Positions 15,169-50,607 of a stretch of 64,000 nucleotides of DNA are shown piece after piece. This DNA is from Escherichia coli. GTDB taxonomy: Bacteria > Pseudomonadota > Gammaproteobacteria > Enterobacterales > Enterobacteriaceae. Numbering within the stretch: position 1 is the first letter of the stretch; each line of letters begins with the position of its first letter. The position numbers and the translations under genes were made by a program. Under the pieces are notes generated by a model, which did not search any database, had not been told where the DNA came from, and worked only from the letters and a program-made list of their open reading frames with translations. The stretch lies in NCBI RefSeq assembly GCF_022846255.1, contig NZ_AP025682.1; one strand, given 5' to 3'.

Positions 15169-17865
15169 TTACTGCCAACCGTAACGACGGCTATAGAACC
15201 CTTTCACCAACTGGGTTAACGTCATATACCCTGCCAGAATCGCAACCAGCCACGGGAAATAGCTTAACGGCAGCGCCTGCAGCTGCAGATAACTGGCCAG
15301 CGGTGAAAACGGCAATGCGATCCCGACAATCATCACGATCACGGTCATAATCATTAACGGCCACGATGCACAGCTCTGAATAAACGGTACACGACGGGTG
15401 CGGATCATATGCACAATCAGCGTTTGCGACAGTAAGCCCACCACAAACCAGCCCGACTGGAACAGCGTTTGCGTTTCCGGCGTGTTGGCATGGAATACCC
15501 ACCACATCAGGCAAAACGTCAGAATATCGAAAATCGAGCTGATCGGTCCGAAGAAGACCATAAAGCGCCCCAGATCCGCCGGATTCCAACGCTGCGGCTT
15601 TTGAATTTGCTCGTCGTCGACGTTATCAAATGGGATCGCCACCTGTGACACATCGTATAGCAGATTTTGAATAAGCAAGTGTAGCGGCAACATCGGCAGG
15701 AAGGGCAAGAAAGCACTCGCCACCAGCACGCTGAACACATTACCGAAGTTAGAGCTCGCCGTCATTTTGATGTATTTCAGCATGTTGGCGAAAGTGCGAC
15801 GTCCCTCAATAACCCCCTCTTCCAGCACCATCAGGCTTTTTTCCAGCAGGATGATATCAGCCGCTTCACGGGCAATATCTACCGCGCCGTCCACAGAAAT
15901 GCCGATATCCGCAGCGCGTAAGGCGGGCGCATCATTAATACCATCGCCCATAAAGCCAACCACATGCCCTTCGCGCTTCAGCAACGTTACGATGCGTTCT
16001 TTATGCATCGGCGTCAGACGAGCAAACAGCGTGGTGCGCTGTGCGAGATTTGCCAGTTCGTCGTCAGATAGCGTTTCAATATCACTACCAATGACCACCT
16101 CTCCCGCGTCCAGCCCCACTTCATGGCACACTTTCGCTGCAACTAACTCACTGTCGCCAGTAAGGATTTTTACGGTAATTCCACTCGCTTTTAATGCCTT
16201 CAGTGCCGGAGCGGTTGTCTCTTTTGGCGGATCAAGGAAAGCAATATATCCTTCGAGGATCAGGTCGGATTCATCCGCCCGCTGGTAATCTCCTTCACGC
16301 GCTGGCAGGTATTTCGTCGCCACCGCAACCACGCGCAGCCCCTGACGATTCAGCGTATCAGTAACCCGCTTAATCTTACGCAGCATGGTGTCATCGAGCG
16401 GTACAATCTCGCCATTGTGACGCACTTGCGAACACACATTGAGGATTTCCTGCAATGCGCCTTTGCAAACCAACTGATGGTGTTCGGTATTTTCTGCCAC
16501 AACCACCGACATCCGACGACGCTCGAAATCAAACGGAATCTCATCAATTTTTTGCCAACGGCTGGCCAGCGAGCGCGCTGACTCTTCATCCGTACCTTCG
16601 AGCACCGCTGTATCAAGCAGGTTTTTAAGCCCGGTCTGGTAATGGCTGTTCAACCACGCGCTATGCAGCACGCGTTCGCTAGTTTTACCGGAGATATCGG
16701 TATGATTCTCCAGCACAATTTTATCCTGTGTCAGGGTGCCGGTTTTATCAGTGCACAGAATATCCATTGCGCCAAAGTTCTGAATGGCATCCAGATGTTT
16801 GACGATCACTTTCTGTTTCGACAACTTGACTGCGCCACGCGCCAGCGTCGAGGTAACAATCATCGGCAACATTTCTGGCGTTAAGCCTACCGCGACCGAA
16901 AGCGCAAACAGTGCCGCTTCCCACCAGTCACCTTTGGTGTAACCGTTGATAAGCAACACCACCGGAGCCATCACCAGCATAAAGCGAATCAGCAGCATAC
17001 TGACGCGGCTAATCCCTTGCTGAAAGGCATTCGGCTCGCTTTCCTGCTCACTAACACGCCCCGCCAGTTGACCAAACCAGGTATTGGCACCTGTGGCAAT
17101 CACCATTGCTTGTGCCGTGCCGCTCACCACGGTGGTGCCCATAAAACACAGGGTGTCGCACTCCAGCGGATTGCTGTGCTCCGGCTGGCGAGTGGTAGCG
17201 GCTTTTTCCACGGGCAGAGACTCACCGGTTAACGACGCCTGAGCGACAAACAGATCCCGCGCCTGCAAGATACGTAAATCTGCCGGGATCATATCCCCCG
17301 CCGCCAGTTTTATAATATCGCCGGGCACCAGTTGGTCTATCGGGATTTCCAGCCAGCCATTTTCACCTTTATCGTTAATTACGCGCAGTACCGTCGCGGT
17401 ATTACTGACCATCGCTTTCAGGGCATCTGCCGCTTTGGTGGAACGAGCTTCCTGAATAAAGTTCAGCAACGTAGAAATAGCGACCATTAGCGCGATAACA
17501 CCTGCGGCAAATAAATCTTCCGTGGCGTAAGAAATAGCACCAAGAATGGTGAGCAAAATATTAAAGGGGTTGCGATAGCAGACCCATAAATGTACCCACC
17601 ACGGCGACGGTTGTTGTGCGGGTAATTTATTTTCACCATGTTGTTCGCGGGCAGATTCCACTTCCGCCAGATTTAACCCTTCCGGATGGGTGTCGAACGT
17701 TTTCCACAATTCTTCTTCGGGCATCACCGCCATTTTCAGGCAATGCGCACTTAAAGAAGGCGGGACCGCCGCATTCACTGTCTGCTGCGCGCCAGGCAAT
17801 GGATCACGATGAACCAGACGGGAAGGTAAATGGCGAATGAGCCGGGTAAAAATTTCTTTAAACAT
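15169..17865 (-). CDS. mgtA: Magnesium-transporting P-type ATPase
   Basis: 898-aa ORF with P-type ATPase DKTGTLT phosphorylation motif and GDGINDAPAL hinge motif. Confidence 0.96.
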   Translation of the reverse strand: MFKEIFTRLIRHLPSRLVHRDPLPGAQQTVNAAVPPSLSAHCLKMAVMPEEELWKTFDTHPEGLNLAEVESAREQHGENKLPAQQPSPWWVHLWVCYRNPFNILLTILGAISYATEDLFAAGVIALMVAISTLLNFIQEARSTKAADALKAMVSNTATVLRVINDKGENGWLEIPIDQLVPGDIIKLAAGDMIPADLRILQARDLFVAQASLTGESLPVEKAATTRQPEHSNPLECDTLCFMGTTVVSGTAQAMVIATGANTWFGQLAGRVSEQESEPNAFQQGISRVSMLLIRFMLVMAPVVLLINGYTKGDWWEAALFALSVAVGLTPEMLPMIVTSTLARGAVKLSKQKVIVKHLDAIQNFGAMDILCTDKTGTLTQDKIVLENHTDISGKTSERVLHSAWLNSHYQTGLKNLLDTAVLEGTDEESARSLASRWQKIDEIPFDFERRRMSVVVAENTEHHQLVCKGALQEILNVCSQVRHNGEIVPLDDTMLRKIKRVTDTLNRQGLRVVAVATKYLPAREGDYQRADESDLILEGYIAFLDPPKETTAPALKALKASGITVKILTGDSELVAAKVCHEVGLDAGEVVIGSDIETLSDDELANLAQRTTLFARLTPMHKERIVTLLKREGHVVGFMGDGINDAPALRAADIGISVDGAVDIAREAADIILLEKSLMVLEEGVIEGRRTFANMLKYIKMTASSNFGNVFSVLVASAFLPFLPMLPLHLLIQNLLYDVSQVAIPFDNVDDEQIQKPQRWNPADLGRFMVFFGPISSIFDILTFCLMWWVFHANTPETQTLFQSGWFVVGLLSQTLIVHMIRTRRVPFIQSCASWPLMIMTVIVMIVGIALPFSPLASYLQLQALPLSYFPWLVAILAGYMTLTQLVKGFYSRRYGWQ

Positions 17866-18130
17866 AAGGAGTCCCTCCGCACTGTCTGAAACAGTACAGA
17901 AATGTCTTCAGGCGTGGCGAAGCCTTACCTGAAGGTAATAAAGCTGAGCAGGGACGTTAAAACGTCACGGCCTTACGCATCCGGTAACGCCGTGAAAAGA
18001 CGGGCTTACCGGAAAAGTTTTAATCTCCGTCGAGGGAGAGGCGTGGGATCAGGTTCCATATAACCTCCGGTAAGTGAAAAAAGCGCCGCAAATAATAAGG
18101 AGAATCCAATAATATTCGTAGCATTTATGG
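17866..18130 (-). promoter_or_regulatory. mgtA 5' leader region (Mg2+/proline-responsive leader containing mgtL)
   Basis: ~260-nt untranslated interval between PhoP-box promoter and mgtA ATG, containing the proline-rich mgtL ORF. Confidence 0.6.
18006..18059 (-). CDS. mgtL: mgtA leader peptide MgtL (17 aa, proline-rich)
   Basis: Reverse complement encodes [17 protein letters not shown], inside mgtA leader. Confidence 0.85.
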
Positions 18131-18153
18131 CGATATAATACCTGCTGGCAACT

Positions 18154-18170
18154 AAACCAACGATAAACCA
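18154..18170 (-). promoter_or_regulatory. PhoP box of the mgtA promoter
   Basis: Plus strand TAAACC-aacga-TAAACC = minus strand GGTTTA-N5-GGTTTA direct repeat, with TATTAT -10-like hexamer ~12 bp downstream. Confidence 0.75.
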
Positions 18171-18243
18171 GACTTTACCCATTGCTGAATGCACAGGTAA
18201 AGTTAGGCTCAAATAATTAAACAACACGTTATGGGACAACAGG

Positions 18244-19191
18244 ATGCAAAATCGGCTGACCATCAAAGACATCGCGCGCTTAAGCGGCGTGGGGAAATCT
18301 ACGGTTTCCCGGGTGCTGAATAACGAAAGCGGCGTGAGCCAGCGCACGCGCGAGCGTGTTGAAGCAGTGATGAATCAGCATGGATTTTCCCCTTCCCGCT
18401 CTGCGCGCGCTATGCGTGGGCAAAGCGATAAAGTGGTCGCCATCATTGTTACCCGTCTGGATTCGTTGTCAGAAAATCTCGCCGTTCAAACCATGCTGCC
18501 AGCGTTCTATGAACAAGGTTACGATCCAATCATGATGGAAAGTCAGTTTTCCCCACAATTAGTTGCCGAACATTTGGGGGTGCTGAAACGGCGTAATATC
18601 GACGGCGTAGTGCTGTTCGGTTTTACCGGCATAACAGAAGAAATGTTAGCCCACTGGCAGTCATCGCTGGTTCTGCTGGCGCGTGACGCAAAAGGCTTTG
18701 CTTCGGTCTGTTATGACGACGAAGGGGCAATCAAGATCCTGATGCAACGGCTGTATGACCAGGGACATCGTAATATCAGCTATCTCGGCGTGCCGCACAG
18801 TGACGTGACGACCGGTAAGCGACGTCACGAAGCCTACCTGGCGTTCTGCAAAGCGCATAAACTGCATCCCGTTGCCGCTCTGCCAGGGCTTGCTATGAAG
18901 CAAGGCTATGAGAACGTAGCAAAAGTGATTACGCCTGAAACTACCGCGTTACTGTGCGCAACCGACACGCTGGCACTTGGCGCAAGTAAATACCTGCAAG
19001 AGCAACGCATCGACACCTTGCAACTGGCGAGCGTCGGTAATACACCGTTAATGAAATTCCTCCATCCGGAGATCGTCACCGTAGATCCCGGTTACGCCGA
19101 AGCTGGACGCCAGGCGGCCTGCCAGTTGATCGCGCAGGTCACCGGGCGCAGCGAACCGCAACAAATCATCATCCCCGCCACCCTGTCCTGA
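18244..19191 (+). CDS. treR: Trehalose operon repressor (LacI family)
   Basis: 315-aa ORF with N-terminal LacI HTH (TIKDIARLSGVGKSTVSRVLN). Confidence 0.94.
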   Translation: MQNRLTIKDIARLSGVGKSTVSRVLNNESGVSQRTRERVEAVMNQHGFSPSRSARAMRGQSDKVVAIIVTRLDSLSENLAVQTMLPAFYEQGYDPIMMESQFSPQLVAEHLGVLKRRNIDGVVLFGFTGITEEMLAHWQSSLVLLARDAKGFASVCYDDEGAIKILMQRLYDQGHRNISYLGVPHSDVTTGKRRHEAYLAFCKAHKLHPVAALPGLAMKQGYENVAKVITPETTALLCATDTLALGASKYLQEQRIDTLQLASVGNTPLMKFLHPEIVTVDPGYAEAGRQAACQLIAQVTGRSEPQQIIIPATLS

Positions 19192-28228: not shown

Positions 28229-28332
28229 GCCGGATGCGGTGCACCTGTAGGCCTGATAAGACGCATCAAGCGTCGCATCAGGCACTATGCTCAAATGCCG
28301 GATGCGACGTGAACGCCTTATCCGGCCTACAC
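28229..28332. repeat. REP/BIME cluster
   Basis: tgccggatgcg...gtaggcctgataagacgcatcaagcgtcgcatcaggc...tgccggatgcgacgtgaacgccttatccggcctaca. Confidence 0.8.
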
Positions 28333-34487: not shown

Positions 34488-34590
34488 AGTAGGCATGATA
34501 AGACGCGGTAAGCGTCGCATCAGGCTTCAGCGCACAACCGCCGGATGCGGCGCGAGCGCCTTATCCGGCCTACGAATCGGCATCAGGCAT
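34488..34590. repeat. REP elements
   Basis: gtaggcatgataagacgcggtaagcgtcgcatcaggc / gccggatgcggcgcgagcgccttatccggcctac. Confidence 0.8.
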
Positions 34591-44958: not shown

Positions 44959-45058
44959 TGCCGGATACGGCGTAAACGCCTTGCCAGGCCTACAAAATCG
45001 TCCAAATTCAATATATTGCGGGGACTGCGTAGGCCTGTTCGGCATAGCGCATCAGGCA
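44959..45058. repeat. REP elements
   Basis: tgccggatacggcgtaaacgccttgccaggcctaca / gtaggcctgttcggcatagcgcatcaggca. Confidence 0.75.
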
Positions 45059-45234
45059 GTTTTTCATTTTTCAGCTGTCTGAATTTTAACCCTCTGGCGG
45101 CTTTACAGTACCTTACGCTATACTAGCCACTGAAAATGCCGGTTCACTTTCTTCGAATCGGCTTTCAATGTGTATTTCACACAAATTAATCAACTTCCCC
45201 TTCCGAGGATCTGGCCTGAAAGGTCGGATAAGAT

Positions 45235-48474: not shown

Positions 48475-48663
48475 TTCTCCACCTCGTCTCTGTGAGCGGT
48501 GTTAACTTATTGTTTTACTTATACCCTATCGTTAATGAATGCGCCAACTGTGATAGTGTCATCATTTTCAAAGCGTAAAATTGTGGCATTCTTCACTGTT
48601 CTATAAGTAAGACGTTTATTCTCCCTTTTCTTTCGTATTCCCGATGATAAAAGGATGTCCCTG

Positions 48664-50607
48664 ATGATTAAGTTTAGCGCAACGCTCCTGGCCACGCTGA
48701 TTGCCGCCAGTGTGAATGCAGCGACGGTCGATCTGCGTATCATGGAAACCACTGATCTGCATAGCAACATGATGGATTTCGATTATTACAAAGACACCGC
48801 CACGGAAAAATTCGGACTGGTACGTACGGCAAGCCTGATTAACGATGCCCGCAATGAAGTGAAAAACAGCGTACTGGTCGATAACGGCGATTTGATTCAG
48901 GGGAGTCCGCTGGCAGATTACATGTCGGCGAAAGGATTAAAAGCAGGTGATATTCACCCGGTCTATAAGGCATTAAATACGCTGGACTATACCGTCGGCA
49001 CGCTTGGCAACCACGAGTTTAACTACGGTCTGGATTATCTGAAAAATGCGCTGGCGGGAGCGAAATTCCCTTATGTAAATGCCAACGTCATTGACGCCAG
49101 AACCAAACAGCCAATGTTTACACCGTATTTAATTAAAGACACCGAAGTGGTCGATAAAGACGGAAAAAAACAGACGCTGAAGATTGGTTATATTGGCGTC
49201 GTCCCGCCACAAATCATGGGCTGGGATAAAGCTAATTTATCCGGGAAAGTGACGGTGAATGATATTACCGAAACCGTGCGCAAATACGTGCCTGAAATGC
49301 GCGAGAAAGGTGCCGATGTCGTTGTCGTTCTGGCGCATTCCGGGCTGTCTGCCGATCCGTATAAAGTGATGGCGGAAAACTCAGTTTATTACCTCAGTGA
49401 AATTCCGGGCGTTAACGCCATTATGTTTGGCCATGCTCACGCCGTTTTCCCAGGTAAAGATTTTGCTGATATCGAAGGGGCTGATATCGCGAAAGGCACG
49501 CTGAATGGTGTTCCGGCGGTAATGCCAGGCATGTGGGGCGATCATCTTGGTGTGGTCGACTTACAACTCAGTAATGACAGCGGTAAATGGCAGGTGACGC
49601 AGGCGAAAGCGGAAGCACGGCCGATTTACGACATCGCGAATAAAAAATCCCTCGCGGCGGAAGACAGCAAGCTGGTAGAAACACTCAAAGCCGATCACGA
49701 TGCCACACGCCAGTTCGTCAGCAAGCCAATCGGTAAATCTGCCGACAATATGTATAGCTATCTGGCGCTTGTGCAGGACGATCCGACCGTGCAGGTGGTG
49801 AACAACGCGCAAAAAGCGTATGTCGAGCATTACATTCAGGGCGATCCGGATCTGGCAAAACTGCCAGTGCTTTCAGCTGCCGCACCGTTTAAAGTTGGTG
49901 GTCGCAAAAATGACCCGGCAAGCTATGTGGAGGTGGAAAAAGGCCAGTTGACCTTCCGTAATGCCGCCGATCTTTATCTCTACCCCAATACGCTGATTGT
50001 GGTGAAAGCCAGCGGTAAAGAGGTGAAAGAGTGGCTGGAGTGCTCCGCCGGACAGTTTAACCAGATTGATCCTAACAGCACGAAACCACAGTCACTCATC
50101 AACTGGGATGGTTTCCGCACCTATAACTTTGATGTTATTGATGGTGTGAATTATCAGATTGATGTTACCCAGCCCGCCCGTTATGACGGCGAGTGCCAGA
50201 TGATTAATGCCAATGCGGAAAGGATTAAGAACCTGACCTTTAACGGCAAGCCGATTGATCCGAACGCCATGTTCCTCGTTGCCACCAATAACTATCGCGC
50301 TTACGGCGGCAAATTTGCCGGTACGGGCGACAGCCATATCGCTTTTGCTTCACCGGATGAGAACCGCTCGGTGCTGGCAGCGTGGATTGCTGATGAGTCG
50401 AAACGTGCGGGGGAAATTCACCCGGCGGCAGATAACAACTGGCGTTTAGCACCAATAGCTGGCGATAAGAAACTGGATATCCGTTTCGAAACCTCTCCGT
50501 CAGATAAAGCCGCAGCGTTTATTAAAGAGAAAGGGCAGTATCCGATGAATAAAGTCGCGACCGATGATATCGGGTTTGCGATTTATCAGGTGGATCTGAG
50601 TAAGTAA
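48664..50607 (+). CDS. cpdB: 2',3'-cyclic-nucleotide 2'-phosphodiesterase / 3'-nucleotidase (periplasmic)
   Basis: 647 aa from ATG at 48664; signal peptide; calcineurin-like metallophosphoesterase motifs (GNHEFN). Confidence 0.93.

Follow-up and report, generated by a model that had tools for sequence, protein, structure and literature searches.

We report that the control region of mgtA in Escherichia coli, lying on the minus strand of a 64,000-nucleotide (nt) stretch of contig NZ_AP025682.1 (hereafter the window), very probably works in two layers: a class II promoter activated by PhoP, followed by Mg2+-dependent translation of the short leader open reading frame (ORF) mgtL, which would select the fold taken up by the leader RNA. 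The region is the already known treR-mgtL-mgtA locus, which is found in essentially every E. coli genome. The sequence elements and their spacing, the identity with K-12, the membership of an Rfam family, the thermodynamic feasibility of the switch, the conservation and the covariation were established here, and PhoP dependence, translation of mgtL, the response to Mg2+ and termination are taken from the literature. No feature of the sequence contradicts the two-layer explanation. A first-pass annotation of the same DNA had described mgtA control as readable end to end; the elements that it named are correct, but it passed over the RNA family RF01056, the stems A, B and C, the EPDP motif of MgtL and the question of the termination factor Rho, all of which are treated below.

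The mgtA promoter and its PhoP box

PhoP half-sites have the consensus (T/G)GTTTA, and mgtA is the type example of architecture I of the Salmonella PhoP regulon, in which a single box in direct orientation lies 12 nt from the -10 hexamer and overlaps the -35 position, and activation is of class II and independent of the C-terminal domain of the alpha subunit (alpha-CTD) (PMC3335776). In the window we found each sequence feature of this architecture, namely an exact box in direct orientation, half-sites facing the hexamer TATTAT and a 12-nt spacer (Table 1), so that the GGTTTA-N5-GGTTTA repeat placed about 12 base pairs upstream of TATTAT in the first-pass annotation is confirmed with a spacer of exactly 12 nt. 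The box stands at -42..-26 relative to the inferred transcription start. To judge by these features, the mgtA promoter here is of architecture I and very probably PhoP-activated.

The exact motif KGTTTA-N5-KGTTTA occurs once on the two strands of the 64-kilobase window, against 0.03 occurrences expected from shuffled sequence, and the combination of box, 12 nt and TATNAT likewise occurs once, with 0.00 expected by chance. When one mismatch was allowed, three boxes were found against 0.87 expected, which is not significant alone; the weight of the box therefore lies in its exact match and its position. The other two one-mismatch matches are at 49115 and 55502, and the same search of the window gave no second PhoP box near the mgtA promoter. 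A scan of the minus strand for consensus sigma-70 promoters returned no -35/-10 pair for mgtA, as is to be expected because the promoter depends on an activator and the PhoP box occupies the -35 region.

We place the transcription start (+1, within 1 nt) by mapping the published numbering of the E. coli mgtA leader, in which GUAAGGCCGUGA is nt 152-163 and a C is nt 175 (PMC11552253), onto the window, where they correspond to 17976..17965 and 17953, respectively. The start obtained in this way lies 8 nt past the last base of the -10 hexamer, that is, after a gap of 7 nt. Work with mgtA-lacZ fusions in E. coli assigned the response to external Mg2+ to this promoter, P1, and that to internal Mg2+ to the leader (PMC11552253).

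Leader RNA, mgtL and the alternative stems

With its ATG at 18059 and its TAA at 18008..18006, mgtL encodes a peptide with proline at codons 3, 5, 7 and 9 and acidic residues at positions 2 and 4 (the EPDP motif), and a Shine-Dalgarno sequence GGAGG (18068..18064) stands 4 nt ahead of the AUG. The AUG is at +69 from the inferred start and 76 nt past the last base of the -10 hexamer, and the 17-codon ORF that had been put about 70 nt downstream is indeed there if the distance is measured from that start; the leader of about 140 nt between it and mgtA turns out to be exactly 140 nt long (18005..17866). MgtL, at 17 amino acids, is below the 20-residue minimum of the protein-family searches, and its identity therefore rests on identical annotated DNA: RefSeq labels 100%-identical DNA as mgtL ('mgtA regulatory leader peptide MgtL', WP_001387276.1) and mgtA. 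MgtA itself scored 1609.6 bits against the TIGR01524 equivalog, for which the cut-off is 610.75. The proposal that this is the known control of mgtA by PhoP and a leader peptide is thus supported by the RefSeq annotation of mgtL and mgtA, the K-12 locus, TIGR01524 and the architecture I promoter.

Two other reading frames in the region were set aside. A mechanically called ORF of 113 amino acids (18006..18347), in frame with mgtL, is merely an open frame antisense to the start of treR, and a 34-codon ORF (18020-18124, minus strand) with its AUG at +4, which overlaps mgtL in another frame, has no Shine-Dalgarno sequence and is not considered a gene.

The leader matched the covariance model of RF01056 (Magnesium-II) with 125.8 bits, against a gathering score of 40, at E = 1.7e-26 and over model positions 1-115 of 115. 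The element encloses mgtL, and its 3' end is 93 nt upstream of mgtA. In stem A, CUUACCGGAGG, which holds the Shine-Dalgarno sequence of mgtL, pairs with UUUCCGGUAAG, which holds the UAA stop codon, and the AUG lies in the loop between them. Stem-loop C, in which CCGGUAAGCCCG pairs with CGGCGUUACCGG, takes its two sides from stems A (3' strand) and B (5' strand). The pair A/B and the stem C have been described as mutually exclusive alternative folds of the mgtA leader (PMC11552253), the former as the 'OFF' and the latter as the 'ON' state.

Computed folding is in keeping with such a switch. Folded without constraints, the 279-nt leader has stem-loops A and B in its minimum-energy structure, and the energies calculated for the stems alone were -12.9 (A), -12.5 (B) and -16.1 kcal/mol (C), or -20.4 kcal/mol for A with its two inner hairpins, values that we would call comparable within this model. 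A ribosome was represented by forbidding pairing under a footprint of +/-15 nt, or of -12/+15 nt. The +/-15-nt footprint at codons 1-3 or 9-12 gave stem C as the minimum-energy fold, and at codons 15-17 it made C impossible and stem B formed. The sequence supports the published mutually exclusive folds, with the thermodynamic model as an illustration and not a proof.

Evidence for the stems also comes from an alignment of 27 sequences. With A, B and the inner hairpins taken together, the structure was 96.4% paired, compared with 38-47% when the partners were slid against each other. The pairs of stem A were kept in 97% of cases and were mostly invariant; stem B, with ten pairs, was 97% paired and showed compensatory changes at four of them across eight genera; and the 7-base-pair core of stem C was invariant. 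Directly 3' of stem B stands a small hairpin of five pairs, three of which had changed on both sides across genera and which was 90% paired. Part of this hairpin lies beyond the Rfam model, and a nearly invariant CCCUG (17949-17953) comes after it, the two having the C at 17953 in common.

Table 1. Features of the mgtA control region and adjoining genes, with positions in the window and the basis of each assignment.
Feature	Position	Strand	Basis
PhoP box, direct repeat GGTTTA-TCGTT-GGTTTA (GGTTTATCGTTGGTTTA)	18169..18153	minus	read directly; identical in K-12
12-nt spacer from box to -10 hexamer (GTTGCCAGCAGG)	18152..18141	minus	read directly
-10 hexamer TATTAT of the PhoP-dependent mgtA promoter P1	18140..18135	minus	read directly
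Inferred transcription start (+1, +/-1 nt)	18127	minus	published leader numbering
mgtA leader RNA, 262 nt from the inferred start	18127..17866	minus	direct reading and inferred +1
Mg2+-responsive RNA element RF01056 (Magnesium-II), stem-loops A and B	18074..17959	minus	Rfam covariance model
Stem A, 5' strand, with mgtL Shine-Dalgarno	18074..18064	minus	Rfam structure line
mgtL leader ORF, 17 sense codons and TAA	18059..18006	minus	read directly; annotated as mgtL on identical DNA
Stem A, 3' strand, with mgtL stop codon	18015..18005	minus	Rfam structure, alignment
Alternative stem-loop C ('ON' fold)	18012..17981	minus	computed fold, literature
Stem-loop B, part of 'OFF' fold	17993..17967	minus	Rfam structure
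Small hairpin GACGU-UUUA-ACGUC	17966..17953	minus	alignment
Shine-Dalgarno GGAGG of mgtA, 8 nt before ATG	17878..17874	minus	read directly
mgtA, Mg2+-importing P-type ATPase, 898 amino acids	17865..15169	minus	TIGR01524 equivalog
treR, divergent neighbour	18244..19191	plus	TIGR02405 equivalog, 590.7 bits

Conservation of the locus

Within E. coli the region is almost uniform. A 501-nt query (window 17800-18300) matched 5425 of 5426 complete genomes, some at 100% identity and all with the treR / mgtL / mgtA annotation, and among the 5425 genomes with a match, 5323 carry the 305-nt region at 99% identity or more. K-12 MG1655 carries treR (b4241), mgtL (b4702) and mgtA (b4242) in the same order and orientation. 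The alignment with the K-12 leader, which the first-pass annotation had named as a check, revealed only two differences within the stretch that begins with the PhoP box: a T-to-C change in the spacer at -21 (18148) and a G-to-A change at +3 (18125). The PhoP box, the -10 hexamer, mgtL and the leader from +4 to the mgtA ATG are identical, and in that sense, at sequence level alone, the control region can be called intact as first described. On the treR side of the box there are four further differences (18233, 18232, 18201 and 18195), and none of the differences touches a defined element. The MgtA proteins share 893 of 898 residues. The neighbourhood (pepA, holC, valS, ... pyrLBI, ridA, mgtA, mgtL, treRBC, nrdD) is the usual chromosomal context.

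A promoter-like site facing treR, TGCACA-16 nt-AATAAT, lies at 18190-18217 on the plus strand, 27 nt upstream of the treR ATG, and may be the treR promoter; the K-12 differences at 18195 and 18201 fall inside it. One of the 5426 genomes, that of E. coli GCU-H1 (locus L003 on NZ_CP178558.1, 4001-5175), has an IS1 at about +2 of the mgtA leader (window ~18126): the PhoP box is still there, as is the -10 hexamer, mgtL, mgtA, ridA, pyrI, pyrB, pyrL and onwards to part of yjgH are missing, and the strain should be devoid of MgtA and aspartate carbamoyltransferase. Three of the places matching window 17800-18300 are on records labelled as plasmids rather than chromosomes.

For comparison beyond the species, genomes representing species were scanned with a degenerate pattern for the MgtL N-terminus, M-(D/E)-P-(D/E)-P-T-P-L-P-R, which fixes the first ten codons, so that these do not count as independent evidence of conservation. 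The scan gave 26 loci in Escherichia, Salmonella, Citrobacter, Kosakonia, Leclercia, Superficieibacter, Pseudescherichia and Enterobacter; wherever a match could be checked, an mgtA homologue lay downstream. In nearly all of the 26, a PhoP box with 0-2 mismatches stands exactly 12 nt before a TATNAT hexamer, and this spacer length is kept in nearly all species examined while the spacer sequence varies. The C-terminal half of MgtL differs in sequence and length between genera, giving peptides of 15-17 amino acids. Across the relatives, stems A and C show no nucleotide variation (27-sequence alignment), and the start and stop codons of mgtL are tied to stem A at the same places in every genus.

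Some relatives depart from this pattern upstream of mgtL. In Citrobacter amalonaticus (L021) a search of the 160 nt upstream of mgtL gave no recognisable PhoP box, the best site having 4 mismatches; mgtL, the stems and mgtA are all present there. In Kosakonia and its relatives (L004, L008, L014, L017, L019, L024 and L029) a PhoP-box-like site with a degenerate upstream half-site (CGTATA or TGTATA) lies 79-84 nt upstream of the mgtL ATG, and the leader 5' of stem A is about 30 nt shorter; at most other loci the distance from box to ATG is 110-118 nt, and at two Escherichia loci it is 100.

One column of the alignment sets the Escherichia group apart. Window position 17988 (alignment column 92) has 17972 as its partner in stem B and 18005 in stem C; it is G or A in all six sequences of the Escherichia group (which include four labelled as Escherichia species and E. 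coli E69, a separate species in the source collection), giving a G.G or A.G mismatch in both stems, and C, paired in both stems, in the other 21. Next to it, the pair 89-111 reads G-C in Escherichia and U-A in the remaining sequences. Within this set the group also has in common a 3' part of the leader that differs from that of the other genera.

The closest known counterpart is the Salmonella enterica mgtA leader (RF01056, with mgtL), which has the same architecture, shares stems A, B and C and likewise has its PhoP box 12 nt from the -10 hexamer. By the same start rule, two Salmonella loci have leader lengths of 55 + 119 + 90 = 264 nt, against 53 + 122 + 87 in the window, and 264 nt is the published length of the Salmonella mgtA leader. 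The N-terminus of MgtL is also shared, as the search pattern required, and is not independent evidence; the C-terminal halves read RRRLKLFR here and RWR(I/V)FLFR in Salmonella. The Escherichia G.G mismatch in stems B and C corresponds to a C-G pair in Salmonella, and over its last ~90 nt, 3' of CCCUG, the leader cannot be aligned between Escherichia and Salmonella.

Similar logic is known from other leaders. The leader of corA in E. coli and Salmonella contains an upstream ORF, corL, that likewise sits inside a stem-loop A, the leader's OFF (A/B) and ON (C/D) folds exclude each other, and translation of corL is Mg2+-dependent and inversely coupled to the transporter gene, as with mgtL (PMC11552253). 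Unlike mgtA, however, corA is transcribed from a constitutive promoter that PhoP does not control, corL begins with UUG and has only one conserved proline, and Rho dependence has been documented for E. coli corA. The trpL, hisL and pheL attenuators resemble mgtL in that progress of translation through a short leader ORF picks the RNA fold, but they use an intrinsic terminator, which the mgtA leader does not have, and they respond to the supply of charged tRNA, whereas the main signal of the mgtA leader is the Mg2+-dependent stability of ribosomes on an acidic, proline-rich motif.

Elsewhere in the window, positions ~8000-10000 share only 84-87% identity with the complete E. coli genome that matches best, compared with 97-100% in the flanking kilobases; in that genome argF and tabA flank the counterpart, a frameshifted 'hypothetical protein' pseudogene, and the segment looks like a hypervariable locus. 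Further Rfam matches, all above the gathering score, are Ysr276 (antisense, inside pepA), three copies of naRNA4, ES036, STnc450 and ES239; they lie at 129-323, 1157-1232, 28250-28327 and 34492-34570 on the minus strand, at 44994-45036 and 45116-45173 on the plus strand and at 48541-48663 on the minus strand. No tRNA genes were found in the 64 kilobases.

Proposed mechanism, alternatives and meaning

Under the two-layer scheme, low periplasmic Mg2+ would be sensed by PhoQ, and phosphorylated PhoP (PhoP-P) would bind GGTTTA-N5-GGTTTA at the -35 position and, as a class II activator of sigma-70 RNA polymerase, bring about transcription from ~18127. Where cytoplasmic Mg2+ (or the supply of proline-tRNA) is adequate, ribosomes would pass the Glu-Pro-Asp-Pro and further proline-rich codons and reach the mgtL stop, where they would cover the 3' strand of stem A, blocking C and letting B form, as A would too after release; stem-loop B, with A, would then lead to a premature end of transcription inside the leader. 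At low Mg2+, an early stall or drop-off within mgtL would allow stem C to form and RNA polymerase to read into mgtA. Both states have been described: inefficient elongation through the acidic and proline codons of mgtL at low Mg2+, with the ON fold C and transcription of mgtA, and full translation of mgtL at adequate Mg2+, with the OFF fold (A/B) and an early stop of transcription (PMC11552253). For E. coli, it has been reported that EPDP is the destabilising motif of MgtL and that the resulting ribosome drop-off is countered by EttA, that the toeprint on mgtL has Pro3 in the P site, and that in MG1655 constructs mgtL is translated and its translation represses mgtA; the acidic EPDP motif is now thought to be as important as the prolines (PMC11282234).

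That the repeat, the hexamer and the short ORF are no more than chance occurrences between two genes, or serve the divergent treR and not mgtA, has next to no probability. It is true that one-mismatch PhoP-box sites are no rarer in the window than chance predicts and that the box is only ~75 base pairs from the treR start codon, but the exact box with its 12 nt and TATNAT has a chance expectation of zero, the half-sites face mgtA, and at least eight genera retain the box, its spacing and the hexamer. Together with the RF01056 match and the near-identity of the region across E. coli, these pattern statistics and this conservation refute such a reading.

Several points nonetheless weigh against two-layer control as set out above. 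With simple thermodynamics, a footprint of +/-15 nt at codons 5-7 still permits A and B, and one of -12/+15 nt on codon 7 leaves stem A able to form; the switch therefore needs kinetic or steric arguments beyond our model. Covariation is uninformative for stem A and the core of stem C, where the paired columns are invariant in the 27 sequences, although invariance may be just what is expected of a segment that pairs in two helices and also encodes a Shine-Dalgarno sequence and a stop codon. Whether Mg2+ is sensed by direct binding to RNA or via mgtL translation is still debated (PMC11552253). The weakest step is termination, which has been shown to depend on Rho for the Salmonella mgtA leader but not for that of E. 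coli, where chromatin immunoprecipitation in the wild type and a rho R66S mutant gave a Rho termination score of 1.0 at mgtA, a value that signifies no effect (PMC5499598).

The debate over sensing raises the alternative that the leader is a pure Mg2+-binding riboswitch, itself choosing between A/B and C, with mgtL translation incidental or secondary (for proline or osmotic signals). RF01056 is indeed listed by Rfam as a riboswitch aptamer, folding of the Salmonella leader RNA is by itself enough to modulate Rho-dependent termination in vitro (PMC11552253), and the variation of the C-terminal half of MgtL beside invariant nucleotides in stems A and C points to a constraint at the level of RNA. 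Yet mutation of Glu2 and Asp4 of MgtL abolishes both expression of an mgtA reporter and its dependence on EttA (PMC11282234), effects of the proline codons and of bL31 have been reported (PMC11552253), and the fixed placement of the mgtL start and stop in stem A in every genus would be hard to explain if translation were irrelevant. We consider a pure riboswitch unlikely and prefer control by PhoP followed by mgtL translation.

It is less easy to set aside the suggestion that the E. coli OFF state comes about without Rho, for instance through Rho-independent loss of RNA polymerase, decay of the leader or mRNA mediated by RNase E or translational occlusion of mgtA, although on balance we doubt it. 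The score of 1.0 was obtained despite RNA polymerase occupancy falling along the gene (PMC5499598), a review table states that the mechanism 'may not be conserved in E. coli' (PMC12360218), and the same caveat is repeated in later papers (PMC12360218, PMC11552253); the unalignable 3' part of the leader and the Escherichia-group mismatch in stems B and C, absent from other genera, point in the same direction. On the other hand, the authors of the R66S study note that this allele may simply not affect the mgtA terminator (PMC5499598), and mgtA is listed among the 5' untranslated regions with 3' ends matching known Rho-dependent premature termination (PMC7815308). A terminator scan of the minus strand found no hairpin with a U-tract resembling an intrinsic terminator in the leader, and a classical attenuator terminator is rejected on this ground. 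In stretches of the leader C exceeds G, as in rut sites, with C/G reaching 2.1 at +81..+120 and ~1.5 over +161..+230; over +51..+130 the ratios are 1.5-2.1, and composition alone does not define a rut site. The C-rich stretches and the missing intrinsic terminator are compatible with Rho but are no proof of it.

It may even be, though we think it very unlikely, that the column-92 mismatch and the distinct 3' part of the leader lead to termination in E. coli that does not use Rho as Salmonella does; if this were true, leader divergence specific to Escherichia would explain the rho R66S result. The window itself adds nothing to the Rho question because its leader is identical to that of K-12.

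In summary, the region is a standard, intact copy of one of the most thoroughly studied leader-control systems of bacteria, that of PhoP/PhoQ, mgtL and Mg2+-responsive leader, and it has little importance beyond annotation. A reading of the sequence without tools can nevertheless recover the mgtA control region correctly, and for this strain a base-by-base annotation of promoter, start site, leader ORF and alternative stems is now possible.

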